64,000 nt of DNA from the NCBI GenBank assembly GCA_037129495.1, contig JBAXUW010000001.1:9970-73969 (forward strand). The letters run 5' to 3'. Positions 6,190 through 59,964 of this stretch are shown piece by piece. The notes under the pieces are model-generated. The model saw nothing but the letters and a program-made list of their open reading frames with translations, had not been told where the DNA came from and searched no databases. The position numbers were made by a program, and so were the translations under genes. Numbering within the stretch: position 1 is the first letter of the stretch; each line of letters opens with the position of its first letter. This DNA is from Planctomycetota bacterium (GTDB taxonomy: Bacteria > Planctomycetota > Planctomycetia > Pirellulales > UBA1268).

Positions 6190-6286
6190 TTTCACGCAAA
6201 CCACGACAGCCTGTCGTGTTTGCTTGGCCGGCCTCCGCCGGCTGGTGCTTTCCATCGCATCCATCCGACGTGGCCGTTTGTATTTC

Positions 6287-6349
6287 GTGGGATAAGATTT
6301 CGAGCTTGTCCGTTTCTTCGGCACGTTGGAAAACTCGCCGCCACGGGGG
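6287..6349 (+). repeat. palindromic intergenic repeat, full copy R1
   Basis: gtgggataagatttcgagcttgtcc-gtttcttc-ggcacgttggaaaactcgccgccacggggg. It aligns colinearly with 44946-45007 and with the split copy at 49795-49819/51015-51052. The two arms are imperfectly complementary. Confidence 0.85.
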
Positions 6350-16852: not shown

Positions 16853-17058
16853 GGCAAGAAAACGTATCCCACGAGGAGAGAGGGATTCCGGAGAGCCGGG
16901 ATCGGCGGAAGCCCGACGAGCGTTGGAATTTCGCCCTGTTCAGTCCTGAACTACCAACACGCCCCACGGCGAAAGTCCAAGCGAAGGAGACTTCTGCCGG
17001 CCCGGCGGTGCAGTGCCACAGCGGGTAGCAACACGCATTTGGACAAGTTAGATCCCAC
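16853..17058. repeat. ~200-bp composite intergenic element, copy A, bounded by box motifs
   Basis: Starts ggcaagaaaacgtatcccac and ends ggacaagttagatcccac. The interior aligns with 24536-24736, sharing identical blocks gcgaaggagacttctgccggcccggcg, cacggcgaaagtcc and gaactaccaacac. Confidence 0.85.
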
Positions 17059-23746: not shown

Positions 23747-24619
23747 ATGCCCCGAAACCCTCCGCCAGCCGCGCCGGTGCCTTCGCAAGGCGATCAGATC
23801 CTCGCTTTGTTCGACGCATTGCCCGATGTGATGCTGTTTGTGAAAAACCGGCGGAGCCGGTTTGTGGGGGGCAACAAGGCCTGTGCCATCATGCACGGTT
23901 GCCGCACGGCTGCGGAGATGACCGGCAAGAACGATGCCGATTTCCATCCCCCGGCGCTCGCCGCGCAGTATGTGGCTGAGGACCGCAAGGTGATGACGTC
24001 GAGACGGCCACTCCGCGACCAGGCGTGGCTGGTGCCCGACCACGCCGGCATGCCGCGTTGGTATCTCTGCACGAAGATGCCGCTCTTTGCTGCCGATGGG
24101 AGCGTCTCGGGGCTGGCTGGCGTTCTGCGTCCGTTTGATCAGGCGGGCAACGCGCCACAGGAATACCATCGGCTCACGCCGGTGATGGAACACGTGCTCC
24201 GCCACTATCGGCGGCCGATCGCACTGCCGGACTTGGCGCGGCTGGCAGGTCTATCGGTGAGTCAATTGCAGCGGGAGTTTCGTCGGCTGTTTAACATCAG
24301 CCCGGGCGACTACATCCTCTGGATGCGGCTCTCGATGGCCCGCCAGCGTCTGGAAGAGACAGCCGATTCCATCCGCCAGATCGGCGCAGACTGCGGCTTC
24401 TATGACCAGAGCCACTTCACGCGGTCGTTCAAACAGCACACGGGCCTGCCGCCGCGGCAATATCGGCAACGACACAGCCGCAGCGAGTGCAATGCAGTGC
24501 CCGGAAGCTTGGCGACGCTTGAGAGGAAGGCTCTCAGAACTTATCCCACCGGGAATTCCGGAAAGTCGGGATCGGCTGCAGCTCGACAAGCGTCGGCATT
24601 TCGCCCTGAAAAGATTTGA
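23747..24619 (+). CDS. PAS-domain AraC-family transcriptional regulator
   Basis: N-terminal PAS-like segment (LPDVMLFVKNRRSRFVGGN..) and a C-terminal AraC HTH (LAGLSVSQLQREFRR.., IGADCGFYDQSHFTRSFKQHTGLPPRQYRQ). The last ~28 codons and the stop lie inside repeat copy B. Confidence 0.85.
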   Translation: MPRNPPPAAPVPSQGDQILALFDALPDVMLFVKNRRSRFVGGNKACAIMHGCRTAAEMTGKNDADFHPPALAAQYVAEDRKVMTSRRPLRDQAWLVPDHAGMPRWYLCTKMPLFAADGSVSGLAGVLRPFDQAGNAPQEYHRLTPVMEHVLRHYRRPIALPDLARLAGLSVSQLQREFRRLFNISPGDYILWMRLSMARQRLEETADSIRQIGADCGFYDQSHFTRSFKQHTGLPPRQYRQRHSRSECNAVPGSLATLERKALRTYPTGNSGKSGSAAARQASAFRPEKI

Positions 24620-24763
24620 ACTACCAACACACATCACGGCGAAAGTCCCCGCGAAGGAGACTTCTGCCGGCCCGGCGATGCACTACCAGAGACGGTAGAG
24701 CAAATCGAGGAGGAAAGCTTTAAAAACTTATCCCACGAAAGACAGAAGACGGCGTGGATGAAG
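24536..24763. repeat. ~200-bp composite intergenic element, copy B, plus a tail module
   Basis: agaacttatcccac ... aaaaacttatcccac, then gaaagacagaagacggcgtggatgaag. The tail is the reverse complement of the module seen at 49766-49800. Confidence 0.85.
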
Positions 24764-28341: not shown

Positions 28342-28588
28342 CCCCGCTGGTGAAACAGGCGCGCGATGAAGGACAGGCCAGACAATCTCATTTCCCCGTG
28401 GAGGCGAGTTTGTGAAGTGTGCCGTTCCCACGTAAACCAAAACGTATCCCACGCCAGCCGTAACGTGGGCTCACATTCTCTGGTTCTCCATTTCCTATCC
28501 TTCTGGCCCTCTCCTCTCAGAGGGGAAAGGCAGGTGTCTCACCTATCATTGGCACAGAGGGCCTGCCAGCTAGCCCTCACAGGGTGCG

Positions 28589-36004: not shown

Positions 36005-37456
36005 TCATCGAACCGTGACTGGCCGTGGCCCAACGGCTGCAGGCTGGGGTGCCTGATCGCTCGGCTGCTGACGACTCTGGCCCCACTCGCCCCCCAAGCC
36101 TGCCGAGAGATTCGGAAACATCGCCCCGCCGACTCGGGGCTGTTTTTCTGAGGCCGAGGGCGTCCTCGTGGTGGGCGGCGGCGTCTGGCGGCTCTGCCGC
36201 TGTGGCTGTCGCGACGGCGGCGTGCCGGCTGGTGACTTTGTGGTGAGCGGGTTTCGCTGGGCGGTGGCGTCCATCGTCGCCGGCAAGGGCCTGACGGCTG
36301 CCGATCCGGATTGGGCCGTGGGCTGCAAAACGGGAGTGGCCGCCTGCATCGCAAGAGGATGCTTCACAAACGAGGCGTCGGCCTGCACGGCAATGCGCTC
36401 TGGAATCACGAGCAGTCGGGCCGCCGGCCGCGGCTTGTCTACAGGCACTGTGTCCACGGTCGGCTGCACGGACGCGACGGGCTGCGACGGCATCTCGGCA
36501 CCACCGATACCCGATTCCGGGGCGATACCCGATTCCGGGGCGATTCCCGATTCCGGGGCGACGACCAATTCGGGGGCGACGACCAATTCGGGGGCGACGA
36601 ACTCTTGGATGGAAAGCATATCTGCCACATCTGACAAGTCTGGAAGAGCGTCGACGGCCAGGACGATGTCCGTGGCCGGCATCTCCACGGGAGTTTGCGG
36701 CAGCGGCTCGGCAGCGGCCAGCGGTATGTGCGGAGCAGATTTTTGCTCAGCGGACAGCTGTGGGGAGGGTTCTGCCACTGCGGTGTCCAGATCTGTAAAT
36801 TTCCCTTCCGGCTGTTGTTCGGACGGAGTGAGCGTCGTAGACGCGATGGGAGCCACCGTCGTTGACGGCGGAACGGTCTCCTGCTTCTGCACCGGCGCCG
36901 TGGCGACCGGTGGCATCGTGGCTGGCGGTGCAGCCTGCGGCCCCGGAGCCGCCGCCGGCTTTGCAATGGCGGTTGTGCCCTGGTCGACCGCCGACCAGAG
37001 ATCGCCATCGGTCTTGGCCTCAGCCCCAATGGTCGATTGCGTGAAGGCCGCAGGTGGCGGAATGGGCGGTGGTTCGGCCGACGACGATGTGCCCTGGCTG
37101 GGCGGCAAGAGTTGGATGGAGAGCAGGGGTTGCCCCTCGCGGAGCGGATGTTTCAGCACCAGACCGCTGAAAGTGTCGTGCGCCCGAACGGCTGAGGTGG
37201 GCATCATCGCCTTCGGCCAGTCGCGGAGCGCCACGTCCCAGACCGTGACAGGGGCTCCCTGAGGCAAAGAACGCAGTGCGACGAAAATCACTTCGCTCTC
37301 CACACGGGGCTTCGACTGTGCCAGCCGGACATCCAGCGCGCGATTGACGCCCACGGCTGCCGCCGCACCCGCCACGAAGGCGGCCGCGAAGACGGTGATA
37401 GCCCGCGGCCGGTGTGACTGTTTCGAAGGCGTGGGCTTTGGCAGAGCGGTGCGCAT
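36005..37456 (-). CDS. CpaB/SAF-domain-like protein with a long Pro/Ala/Thr-rich repetitive tail
   Basis: Start at ATG 37456 (MRTALPKP). TM anchor, then a SAF-like segment (VIFVALRSLPQGAPVTVWDV..LKHPLREGQPLL) as in Flp-pilus CpaB N-termini. The remaining ~330 aa are low complexity. Confidence 0.6.
   Translation of the reverse strand: MRTALPKPTPSKQSHRPRAITVFAAAFVAGAAAAVGVNRALDVRLAQSKPRVESEVIFVALRSLPQGAPVTVWDVALRDWPKAMMPTSAVRAHDTFSGLVLKHPLREGQPLLSIQLLPPSQGTSSSAEPPPIPPPAAFTQSTIGAEAKTDGDLWSAVDQGTTAIAKPAAAPGPQAAPPATMPPVATAPVQKQETVPPSTTVAPIASTTLTPSEQQPEGKFTDLDTAVAEPSPQLSAEQKSAPHIPLAAAEPLPQTPVEMPATDIVLAVDALPDLSDVADMLSIQEFVAPELVVAPELVVAPESGIAPESGIAPESGIGGAEMPSQPVASVQPTVDTVPVDKPRPAARLLVIPERIAVQADASFVKHPLAMQAATPVLQPTAQSGSAAVRPLPATMDATAQRNPLTTKSPAGTPPSRQPQRQSRQTPPPTTRTPSASEKQPRVGGAMFPNLSAGLGGEWGQSRQQPSDQAPQPAAVGPRPVTVR
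36506..36600. repeat. 18-bp tandem repeats (5.3 units) inside CDS 36005..37456
   Basis: Units gatacccgattccggggc x2, gattcccgattccggggc, and gacgaccaattcgggggc x2. They encode APESGI x3 / APELVV x2 on the minus strand. Confidence 0.85.
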
Positions 37457-44829: not shown

Positions 44830-44945
44830 TTCTTGTGGGCTGAAGAGCAGAGTAAGAGGCTTTAAACTGGGGTGGAGCGGCGTCTTATCGGGAGGCCAAG
44901 TTTCACAAAAATCATCGTCTCCAGGCGACGCGGTCTTCTGTCTTT

Positions 44946-45007
44946 TGTGGGATACGTTTTCTAACTTGTCCGCTTCGGCAGGCTCGAAAAACTCGCCTCT
45001 ACGGGTG
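44946..45007 (+). repeat. palindromic intergenic repeat, full copy R2
   Basis: gtgggatacgttttctaacttgtcc-gcttc-ggcaggctcgaaaaactcgcctctacgggtgg, colinear with R1 and R3. Confidence 0.85.
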
Positions 45008-49660: not shown

Positions 49661-49680
49661 ACGGAGTCTTACACCCTTTC

Positions 49681-49794
49681 GTGGGATAAGATTTCTAACT
49701 TCACGCGAAACATCGCATCCTGCGATTTTCACTTGGCAAACACAGTTTGCTGGTGGGAAGCGTCGCATCCATGCGCCGCAATCTTCTGTCTTTC
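49681..49794 (+). repeat. box repeat plus modules (copy C1)
   Basis: The head gtgggataagatttctaacttcacgcgaaacatcgc matches 10798-10845(-). The tail ...catccatgcgccgcaatcttctgtctttcg matches the reverse complement of 24737-24763. Confidence 0.75.
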
Positions 49795-49819
49795 GGGGGA
49801 TAAGATTTCTATCTTGTCC
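49795..49819 (+). repeat. palindromic repeat R3, 5' arm (interrupted by the IS)
   Basis: gggggataagatttctatcttgtcc. The last 9 nt (atcttgtcc) are duplicated at 51006-51014. Confidence 0.85.
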
Positions 49820-49889
49820 CAATCCTGTTCGGCACGGCAGTTGCTGCAGTTCAAGTAGCTCAACAAGGGAGTGTGGGTTGAGTTGCGCG

Positions 49890-50798
49890 ATGGGCTTGAA
49901 GCATTTCAAGGCGCTGCGGGGCTTGATCGAGCGGCTGCACTTCGCAGGGACGCAGCGGGATAAGACAGGCAATCGTGATCTGCACATGGATCAGTACTGC
50001 TCACTGCTCCTGCTGTGGTTTTTTAGTCCCATGGTCGACAGCCTCCGCGGGAGGCTAGCAGGCCGGCACGCTCGACAAGGTACGCAAGCGCTTCGGTGTC
50101 GGACGTGCCTCGCGGGGCTCGCTTTCAGGGGGCGTCGCTGTGCGGCTATCGTCTGCACACTCAGTTGGAAGTGTTGCGTGGAATTCCGTCACGGATCGAC
50201 GTGACGCCCGCTAGTCCAAAGGGTGAAAACGACGAGCGGGCGGTCCTCGCCCGCTCGGTCGAACCATACCGGATGGACGTGATGGATCGCGGCTATGCCC
50301 AGTTCTCGCTGTGGAATGTGATCGTCGCCAAGGGCAGCAGTTCCTGCTGTCGCGTCAGGGACAACTCAGCGCATGACGTCGAGCGAACCCTGGAGCTGAC
50401 CGATGCCGATCGTGCGGCTGGTGTGGTCAGTGACGAAGTGGTCGTGTTCGGCCGCCCCAAAGCACGGGTCATCCTCTGACCATCCGGTGCGAATCGTGAC
50501 TCATCGCCTCGATCTGCCCGCTGAACTCAGCGGAGAGATCTATCGGCTGCGGTGGCTGATCGAGACGTTCTTTCGGATGTTCAAGCAACTGCTGGGCTGT
50601 CGCCATCTGCTTTCCACCAAGCAGACCGGAGTGGAGATCCAGGTGTTCTTTGGAATTATCGCCTGCCTGTTGATCCTCCTCTCCACGGGCCGTAAGCCGA
50701 CGAAGCGAACCTTTGAGATGGTCTGCTTTTATCTCTCAGGCTGGGCAAGCGTGAATGAAATGGAGCGGCATATCGAAGCACTTCCTAGGCCGGCGTGA
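49890..50798 (+). pseudogene. IS4-family DDE transposase, frameshifted and internally deleted
   Basis: The coding signal is split over track ORFs 49419..50204, 50096..50479 and 50403..50798. The last carries a canonical Y-2-R-3-E-6-K motif (YRLRWLIETFFRMFK). The N-terminal part is MGLKHFKALRGL..SLRG, after which similarity continues in another frame past a TAG at 50056. The element is shorter than intact IS4 members. Confidence 0.75.
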
Positions 50799-50942
50799 TC
50801 CTTCTGCGCACCGAACGGCGCCGCAGCGATTACTGCTGCGCCGGTGACGACAACCACGCCCATCCTGCCTCGCGCTCCTGATGCTGGAGAGCATGGCGCA
50901 ACAAGCAAGCTGCAACTAGAACGCAGCAGCAGCCTCAACTCC

Positions 50943-50967
50943 GGACAAGTTAGAAAACTTATCCCAC
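50943..50967 (-). repeat. box half-copy lying inside the right end of the IS
   Basis: ggacaagttagaaaacttatcccac is the reverse complement of the repeat 5' arm gtgggataagttttctaacttgtcc. It sits 10 nt inside the right IR. Confidence 0.8.
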
Positions 50968-51005
50968 AGAGGAGGGAGCAGCAACTGCCGTGCCGAACAG
51001 GATTG

Positions 51006-51052
51006 ATCTTGTCCTCTTCTTCGGCAAGTTGGAAAACTCGCCTCCACGGGGG
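51006..51052 (+). repeat. palindromic repeat R3, TSD copy + loop + 3' arm
   Basis: atcttgtcc|tcttcttcggcaagttggaaaactcgcctccacggggg. Removing the IS and one TSD copy restores a unit colinear with R1 and R2. Confidence 0.85.
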
Positions 51053-59934: not shown

Positions 59935-59964
59935 GGACAGGTTGGAAAACTTATCCCACGGGGG
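59935..59964 (-). repeat. box half-copy upstream of the HDAC-like gene
   Basis: ggacaggttggaaaacttatcccacggggg matches the 3' arm of the palindromic repeat, with the box restored to ..cttatcccac. Confidence 0.75.

Follow-up and report, generated by a model that had tools for sequence, protein, structure and literature searches.

A 64,000-nucleotide stretch of a Pirellulales genome (Planctomycetota bacterium, contig JBAXUW010000001.1 of assembly GCA_037129495.1), referred to here as the window, carries two similar elements of about 200 bp, copy A downstream of hemL and copy B at the end of a gene for an AraC-family protein, and together they raise the question of whether such elements are structured RNAs or mobile DNA. 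A sequence-only reading of the locus had left both options standing, as a candidate structured RNA or a miniature inverted-repeat transposable element (MITE). The results described below lead us to favor, with a probability of roughly 0.6, the interpretation that both elements are copies of a non-autonomous, dispersed and modular composite intergenic repeat of freshwater Pirellulales. It resembles repetitive extragenic palindromic (REP) sequences and REP doublets forming hairpins (REPINs), enterobacterial repetitive intergenic consensus (ERIC) elements and bacterial interspersed mosaic elements (BIMEs). The repeat option fits what is directly observed, namely copies in the hundreds, their arrangement in tandem arrays, orthologous sites that stand empty, a rod-like fold in which both sides of base pairs have changed, and no constant gene partner. 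A dedicated regulatory RNA is accordingly the less likely alternative to mobile DNA that is selfish or neutral. Elements of this kind are well known; this member, and the coupling of a REP-like box to a rod, appear to be undescribed. No earlier account of the element or of its sequence strings was found in searchable texts, the Planctomycetes repeat literature included, and the sole relevant paper found makes the general statement that tagged REPs occur in Planctomycetes.

Two colinear copies of one element

A repeat search of the window paired 16882-17028 with 24552-24698 as a 147-nt direct repeat of 82% identity, and pairwise alignment of the two copies showed them to be on the same strand and colinear, as had been noticed from the letters of the sequence. 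Profile searches with nhmmer returned E-values of 1e-40 for the window copies, and the family covariance model, run with filters off, scored copy A at 128 bits (E 6e-30) and copy B at 122.7 bits (E 1e-28); the likeness of the two is far beyond chance. The same unfiltered search found no third copy in the window, the next best match reaching 15 bits (E 0.09), besides weak reverse-strand echoes of A and B. The segment 52795-52836, which gave a 71% match in the repeat search, was considered as a third copy and rejected, since the covariance model has no match there.

Three of the sequence blocks said to be shared, gcgaaggagacttctgccggcccggcg, cacggcgaaagtcc and gaactaccaacac, are exact in both copies. 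A fourth, ccgggatcggc, is the reading of copy A and becomes TCGGGATCGGC in copy B, where it starts with T. The box proposed to bound each element, AAAAC[GT]TATCCCAC, matches exactly at the left end of copy A and the right end of copy B and with one mismatch at the left end of copy B; the right end of copy A retains only a degenerate remnant of it. Coordinates of all parts are collected in Table 1.

A family of dispersed and tandemly arrayed units

An 18-mer taken from the longest identical block matched 53 stretches among species-representative genomes, about 14 of which are chance 18-mers inside genes of unrelated taxa and were set aside. The Pirellulales metagenome-assembled genome (MAG) JBIIFB01 contributes 52 exact matches on 37 stretches, its copies being scattered over at least 35 contigs, and one matching stretch each lies in another Pirellulales MAG and in a Planctomycetaceae MAG. 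A scan of metagenomes with an overlapping 19-mer gave at least 120 stretches; many of these loci are the same populations resampled, and the numbers are to be read as counts of sequences and not of events. A single 18-mer match in a viral collection (L174) has no model match and is attributed to chance. Collecting copies from related genomes by nhmmer, the check suggested when the elements were first noticed, proved productive: the collected sequences contain 245 matches, of which 197 are full-length copies representing 176 distinct sequences, in which the invariance of the 3' block is built in by the searches seeded on it. As far as sampled, the family is confined to a clade of Pirellulales (Planctomycetota). 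Many copies lie at contig ends, so the family is evidently abundant enough to break assemblies.

Tandem arrays are frequent, with a period of 185-320 bp and up to five units, each unit made of box, purine-rich leader, core and tail; the first unit of an array can be without an upstream box and yet retain the downstream one. Regular unit spacing with a hairpin repeat between units, together with open frames that run through single units, is what might be seen if the unit encoded a small protein or if the arrays were of a CRISPR-like or integron-like type. We give these ideas almost no credence. Insertions and deletions of 1 nt are common in the core (an extra A in 25 of 176 copies, others in the apex) and substitutions lack 3-periodicity, both of which oppose a protein. 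The 'spacers' of any CRISPR-like or integron-like array would have the conserved 125-nt core in common, the copies of one MAG occupy at least 35 contigs where a single array beside cas or intI would be expected, and the box has no GTTRRRY/RYYYAAC core sites.

The core folds as one long rod

The core of the unit is ~115-125 nt long and consists of two ~43-nt arms, imperfect inverted repeats of one another, that flank a variable spacer of ~35 nt, and its RNAalifold consensus is a single rod. From base to tip, helix P1 pairs GCCGGG-A-UCGGC with GCCGG-CCCGGC and P1b pairs GAAGCUC with GAG-A-CUUC, followed by an internal loop GACGA/GAAG and by pairing of GCG with CGC. The upper part comprises P2, in which GGAaUUUCGCC pairs with GGCGAAAgUCC, and an apex of ~35 nt that varies among copies, with two or more classes distinguishable, while the internal loop is near-invariant across the family. 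Four cores were folded on the plus strand, namely those of copies A and B, one from subfamily B and a minimal one of 77 nt; in each, the minimum free energy (MFE) structure coincides with the centroid rod (z -3.5 to -5.0). The MFE is -55.4 kcal/mol (z -4.3) for the core of copy A and -45.7 kcal/mol (z -3.5) for that of copy B, within a range of -46 to -63 kcal/mol for the folded cores.

Comparative evidence supports the same structure. In an alignment of 97 copies that was fitted to the covariance model, and leans towards it, 95.5% of cells are paired and 15 of the 31 pairs have changed on both sides, in 65 cells, a result that none of 500 shuffles reached; sliding the partners by 1-3 columns as a control lowers pairing to 38-50%. 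An unfitted MAFFT alignment gives 9 pairs with both-side changes versus 1.6 in shuffles; subfamily B is misplaced in it by a single pair, which lowers the count for P2, and the model-based alignment is preferred. The clearest both-side changes are those in P2 (G-C 71, C-G 19, U-A 1 at one pair; C-G 81, U-A 6 at another) and in outer P1. The middle of the rod is invariant and hence uninformative on pairing. In this region the local hairpins GAAG-GAGA-CUUC and CGAC-GAGC-GUUG are competing folds, and the rod is the thermodynamically favored one.

The rod takes the place of the conserved fold proposed in the sequence-only reading, which consisted of four small hairpins with GNRA tetraloops. Four hairpins can indeed be drawn, and GAAA and GAGA (2 of the 8 quoted loops) are of the GNRA type; AGAG, AAAG, GAGC and AAGC are not. 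The supposed hairpin GGC-GAAA-GUCC is actually the 3' strand of P2, engaged in a long-range helix with GGAAUUUCGCC, and the 5' hairpin, which in copy A the UUCCGG of the leader can form with CCGGGA of P1, is specific to the window lineage, only 46% of its cells being paired across the family. Conserved secondary structure of the core is supported; a dedicated RNA role is not favored, for reasons given below.

At least three subfamilies and a 75-nt minimal form share the one architecture, the minimal form (represented among the folded cores by the 77-nt copy) being without P2 and apex. A subset of subfamily B (L080, L162, L145, L071:2850-3000 and L135) has the 3' strand of P2 interrupted by a perfect 23-nt hairpin, GCCGGCC-CGA-GGCCGG, so the rod tolerates insertions there.

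In size and structure the core is typical of bacterial structured RNAs, and it matches no Rfam 15 family. Scanning the window gave no match at gathering thresholds, nothing relevant around copy A at E<=10 and nothing relevant in five related loci at E<=1, which bears out the initial impression that no known RNA family is involved. Readings as a hammerhead, twister, k-turn or tRNA-like fold were abandoned: Rfam lends none of them support, the internal loop has two bases more than a canonical k-turn, and the U of CUGA varies, being replaced by G in 51 of 176 copies.

A REP-like box is coupled to the core

The box is an imperfect palindrome of 25-35 nt that reads on the opposite strand as a GTGG or GTAG tag followed by a stem-loop. 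Its sequence is GGACAAGTTAGAAAACTTATCCCAC in the window lineage and TCAACTCCCGGACAAGTTAAAAACTTGCCGCCAC in MAG JBIIFB01, corresponding on the opposite strand to GTGG-GATAAGTTTTCTAACTTGTCC and GTGG-CGGCAAGTTTTTAACTTGTCCG, respectively, and subfamily B has a canonical tagged hairpin, GTAG-GACAGGCTTCAGCCTGTC, at the equivalent position. Tagged REP elements share this layout of tag plus palindrome (PMC3733652). Matches to the box with up to 2 mismatches number 13 in the window versus 0.31 expected; the box is a separate motif, far commoner than the core, and is not specific to the two elements. It occurs as solitary copies, as inverted back-to-back doublets of two subtypes, or adjoining cores, and the boxes of the window mostly face gene 3' ends or sit between convergent genes. 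Loci that bear cores contain 256 boxes. Box and core share a strand in all but 3 of the 197 cases where they are close together; a box is found within 80 nt upstream of 96 of 185 cores and within 110 nt downstream of 98 of 170. Variation in the box stem is partly correlated (A-T 133, C-G 22, C-T 23, A-G 11).

Wherever a core has an upstream box, the spacing between the two is fixed and they share a strand, and one solitary box precedes the start of an open reading frame (ORF) by 43 nt. Such positions would be expected of a promoter, in which case each unit would be a small RNA (sRNA) gene and the arrays tandem sRNA paralogues. This proposal strikes us as very improbable: many of the boxes face into converging genes at their 3' ends or stand back to back between such genes, 86 of 185 cores have no upstream box, first array units may have a downstream box only, the box has no sigma-70 hexamer match, and its tag and palindrome are laid out as in REPs.

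Other modules accompany the main box. A second box subtype, GGCAMGTTGGAAAACTCGCCKCCAC, is present at 6320-6344, 51023-51047, 44976-45005 and 28395-28424 (minus strand); it is closer than the window's main box to the box of MAG JBIIFB01, and thus two REP-like subtypes coexist in one genome. A second repeat module is joined to boxes at 6241-6311, 44901-44971 and 49749-49819 of the window and at L128:7300-7420. It consists of GAAAGACAGAAGA and then a hairpin, GCGUCGCA-AGGA-UGCGACGC, followed in some copies by GCCGGC-GGAG-GCCGGC, and a remnant of it lies directly 3' of the right box of copy B (24737-24760).

Table 1. Parts of the two elements and further boxes, in window coordinates
Feature	Position	Strand	Description
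Copy A left box	16853-16872	+	partial REP-like box GGCAAGAAAACGTATCCCAC, 8 nt past hemL stop codon; exact box-pattern match at 16859-16872
Copy A leader	16873-16894	+	purine-rich, GAGGAGAGAGGGATTCCGGAGA
Copy A core	16895-17006	+	one long imperfect hairpin (rod); covariance-model match 128 bits
Copy A P1	16895-16906 with 16996-17006	+	base helix of rod
Copy A P1b	16908-16914 with 16987-16994	+	rod helix
Copy A internal loop	16915-16919 opposite 16983-16986	+	GACGA opposite GAAG
Copy A GCG pairing	16920-16922 with 16980-16982	+	
Copy A P2	16925-16935 with 16968-16978	+	rod helix
Copy A variable apex	16936-16967	+	
Copy A tail	17007-17039	+	small semi-conserved hairpin UGCC-ACAGC-GGGUA, from two-copy alignment; tail common to window-lineage units
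Copy A right box	17040-17058	+	degenerate remnant only, TGGACAAGTTAGATCCCAC
Copy B left box	24536-24549	+	AGAACTTATCCCAC, 1 mismatch; within 3' end of AraC-family ORF
Copy B core rod	24565-24676	+	contains AraC-family stop codon (ORF end 24619); 122.7 bits
Copy B tail	24677-24711	+	hairpin CUACC-AGAGAC-GGUAG
Copy B right box	24712-24736	+	full box GGAAAGCTTTAAAAACTTATCCCAC, exact box-pattern match at 24723-24736; then second-module remnant GAAAGACAGAAGA...
Box doublet	6287-6344	box1 minus, box2 plus	REPIN-like inverted pair, back to back
Box doublet	28395-28452	box2 minus, half box1 plus	between convergent genes
Box doublet	44947-45005	box1 minus, box2-like plus	divergent intergenic region
Two box1 copies	49676-49819	-	114 bp apart, just past gene ending 49660
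Solitary box1	59935-59959	+	43 nt upstream of ORF starting 60002

Gene context and empty orthologous sites

With genes called from the GC content of third codon positions, 26 arrays lie between convergent genes and 3 between divergent ones, and those in tandem contexts divide into 18 on the gene strand and 11 on the opposite strand. Both window copies are located between convergent genes, a context that is uninformative on strand. The argument that each lies on the strand of its upstream gene, and would therefore be an RNA of the 3' untranslated region (3'-UTR), loses its force in view of this placement and of the 18 to 11 division, and because both strands fold similarly; for the window copies either strand folds about equally well. 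Minimal copies neighbor unrelated housekeeping genes, including those for AP endonuclease-like, ThrRS, LigD_N, QueA, RsmH, PSD1, DUF1501, SCO1 and COX4 proteins. A cis-regulatory RNA or riboswitch would be expected at a fixed place upstream of one gene family and on the gene's strand, and no such placement was found among the copies, which are mostly at gene 3' ends.

This distribution invites the idea that the host has adopted the element as a 3'-end device, the rod and/or the box hairpin blocking 3'-5' exonucleases or stopping transcription between convergent genes. REP and ERIC elements have been reported as exonuclease blocks or transcription stops at 3' ends. Convergent and tandem contexts are enriched and divergent promoter regions nearly free of arrays (26 + 29 versus 3), and the hairpin, at -46 to -63 kcal/mol, is very stable. 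However, there is no U-tract, the same sites work without the element in a relative, arrays of up to five units exceed what such a device needs, and selection against insertion into promoters and genes explains the distribution equally; adoption of this sort therefore seems improbable.

The relative in question, GCA_040397725.1, encodes a HemL with 87% amino acid identity and has its genes in the same order as the window, namely PrpD, protein kinase, HemL, PSCyt1, PSCyt2/PSD1, DUF1501 and AraC-family. Its hemL/PSCyt1 spacer measures 70 bp versus 225 bp in the window, and a box-like remnant, GACAAGCTATCCCG, which resembles the right box of copy A, is present at this empty site. In the relative the AraC-family protein is 264 aa long and the spacer behind its gene measures 13 bp; the window version has 290 aa and is associated with the element. 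Across the 21-kb locus of this genome there is no core at E<=1e-11 and no box match. The empty orthologous sites indicate that the neighboring genes do not need either window copy.

The AraC-family ORF of the window (23747-24619, with PAS_4 and HTH_18 domains) is 26 codons longer through copy B, its last ~28 codons being drawn from box, leader and 5' arm, and copy B has thus supplied the protein with a new C-terminal tail. At copy A, six strains with identical HemL protein show 6 segregating sites in the 225-nt spacer versus 3 in the 1380 nt of hemL, and one copy A variant, carried by 4 of the 6 strains with the window included, differs from the consensus of the family and disrupts a pair in P1b.

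Tandem repeats of other kinds were also encountered. In another Planctomycetota lineage the site downstream of HemL holds an unrelated tandem repeat (L183:4366-4879) with units of ~120 nt containing CCCATCGCTTACGCTCCGGGCTTGTA and CCCATAAAAGCCCTCGGCGTAAGCCGGGGGATCGGATGCCACACAG, and the tails in L040 and L043 show this same ~120-nt-unit family. Long ORFs of the window also contain short tandem repeats, at 36505-36594 with an 18-nt unit (CGATACCCGATTCCGGGG) in 4-5 copies and at 967-1074 with a 27-nt unit in 3-4 copies; they probably encode protein repeats.

Mobile DNA weighed against a functional RNA

Small size, absence of coding capacity, multiple copies and presence or absence between related genomes are attributes that the element shares with MITEs. 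It likewise shares attributes with REPs and REPINs, with a tagged palindromic box, many extragenic copies, inverted doublets, and a core composed of inverted arms and a variable apex; the core arms themselves carry no GT[AG]G (or CGTC) tag. The P1 arms, GCCGGGAUCGGC / GCCGGCCCGGC, constitute inverted repeats at the core ends, and the unit that is duplicated also takes in leader, tail and box. No parent insertion sequence (IS) with matching terminal repeats is present in the window, where the sole IS (49820-51005, DDE_Tnp_1) has unrelated 28-bp repeats, CAATCCTGTTCGGCACGGCAGTTGCTGC. A Pfam scan of ten window ORFs yielded no Y1_Tnp match.

Several observations weigh against the mobile-repeat interpretation. 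In ~1.1 Mb of genome fragments no ORF resembling a Y1 transposase or a REP-associated tyrosine transposase (RAYT) lies between inverted boxes, where only IS4-like fragments and unrelated ORFs were found, and the one transposase in the window belongs to the unrelated, degraded IS4/IS5-type element. No target-site duplication could be defined, filled and empty sites being too diverged to align base by base. Folding of one particular strand is hinted at by a modest excess of G.U over A.C (38 versus 24), by a plus strand that is ~3 kcal/mol more stable on average over 93 copies, and by the replacement of two P2 pairs with tandem G.A/A.G in subfamily B. The unpaired loop bases are almost invariant, and the scaffold differs at ~3 of 85 positions (hand count) between the window genome and MAG JBIIFB01, genomes in which syntenic orthologues have 70-87% protein identity. 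Constraint of this order on the scaffold, along with near-invariant loop bases, would fit a host-level RNA function too.

Such a function would make the core a multi-copy structured RNA, acting in trans or as part of 3'-UTRs, in which the rod shows the GACGA/GAAG loop to a protein or RNA and the apex tunes specificity; the repeats would then be gene copies and not parasites. The strand-related signals, the kept scaffold, the both-side changes of P1 and P2 beside unpaired bases that hardly vary, and an architecture retained by at least three subfamilies and the minimal form are all favorable to it. We nevertheless consider it unlikely. A scan for sigma-70-type promoters found nothing overlapping either element, and no intrinsic terminator or U-tract overlaps either of them on either strand, the one terminator site (24439-24456, minus) lying upstream inside the AraC-family ORF. 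Copies show no clear strand bias with respect to neighboring genes, both window sites are empty in the relative, copy A has pair-breaking changes and is more polymorphic than hemL, and copy B interrupts a gene end. Copy number, judged by exact seed matches, is uneven: one MAG has 52, and two other Planctomycetota MAGs have 1 each. Finally, changes on both sides of pairs are predicted equally by mobile DNA whose movement depends on a hairpin.

The IS of the window has features of its own that involve boxes. Its DDE_Tnp_1 match is in ORF 50403-50798, which has a broken frame; its 28-bp terminal inverted repeats are perfect and it is flanked by a 9-bp target duplication, ATCTTGTCC. It is inserted exactly within a box1/box2 doublet and contains, immediately next to the right terminus, a box1 copy (50943-50967), and in L108 a similar transposase fragment is found between inverted REP hairpins. 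These placements hint that the IS4/IS5-type element may prefer REP targets.

Relation to known bacterial repeats

The comparison with ERIC elements, also called intergenic repeat units (IRUs), concerns architecture only and draws in part on PMC2759123. The core is, like ERIC (~127 bp), an imperfect palindrome of ~125 nt that folds into a long hairpin. Like ERIC, too, the Pirellulales repeat is extragenic, occurs in either orientation, is kept across genera and varies widely in copy number between related genomes, and it has length variants produced by internal indels (here the 75-nt minimal form and the 23-nt hairpin insert). The hosts belong to different phyla, however, and the likeness is architectural with no sequence similarity expected; the Pirellulales palindrome is moreover coupled to a REP-like box and arranged in tandem arrays, and it has no identified TA target duplication.

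REPs resemble the box as short imperfect palindromes with a GT[AG]G tag that are over-represented in extragenic DNA and form inverted doublets. REPINs resemble the core in having two conserved inverted arms and a more variable spacer, with pairing kept by changes on both sides, and the BIMEs of E. coli have a comparable mosaic and tandem arrangement of different modules. Unlike REPIN-RAYT systems, no RAYT was found in the genome fragments searched, and the core arms are longer (~43 nt) and devoid of the GTAG or CGTC tag. The Pirellulales core is also more conserved between lineages than the box; cross-lineage conservation is known for REPIN populations that are vertically inherited. REPINs, ERIC elements and hairpin-dependent transposons have in common conserved arms, a variable spacer and kept pairing, with selection acting there via the copying machinery, and it is on this basis that we place the element with REPINs, ERIC elements and BIMEs.

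Other repeats offer looser parallels. The Correia or NEMIS elements of Neisseria and the BOX elements of pneumococci are non-coding repeats of 100-200 bp that are co-transcribed with their neighbors and form stable hairpins, and BOX elements are modular, with a middle module that is tandemly repeated. The Pirellulales repeat is similar to both in small non-coding size and stable hairpins and to BOX in its modularity, although sequence and host are unrelated. Correia elements also possess clear terminal inverted repeats and a TA duplication that are not seen here.

Proposed mechanism and implications

In the mobile-repeat interpretation that we prefer, units land in gene-poor gaps, chiefly between convergent or tandem genes, and multiply locally by duplication between boxes to give tandem arrays; related genomes differ through their gain and loss. 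Recognition of structure by the copying machinery, probably as single-stranded DNA, would be what preserves the rod with its invariant GACGA/GAAG loop, in a manner that by analogy could follow REPIN-RAYT or IS200/IS605-type systems. In a transcript that reads through from an upstream gene, the rod would make a 3' hairpin of great stability, which could incidentally stabilize or terminate the transcript as REP and ERIC sequences do; nothing here supports such an effect as a selected function. A more far-reaching proposal, which we regard as distinctly unlikely, would have the rod be a multi-copy structured nucleic acid of a new class, RNA or single-stranded DNA, whose GACGA/GAAG loop docks with a conserved Pirellulales protein or is an active site for it. 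The variable apex would then give each copy its individuality, and the coupled REP-like hairpin would complete a two-part recognition and cargo system that has no described counterpart.

Repeat families of this type are well known in Proteobacteria and poorly charted in Planctomycetota. The repeat changes gene ends, as in the 26 codons added to the AraC-family ORF, and its length-variable arrays could serve as strain markers. As a long, conserved hairpin whose internal loop is invariant, the element is a clean case of a structure that could pass for a regulatory RNA when motifs are screened, and cataloguing it would thereby prevent false riboswitch or sRNA calls. If a mobilizing enzyme is found, REPIN-like biology would be extended to a deep-branching phylum.

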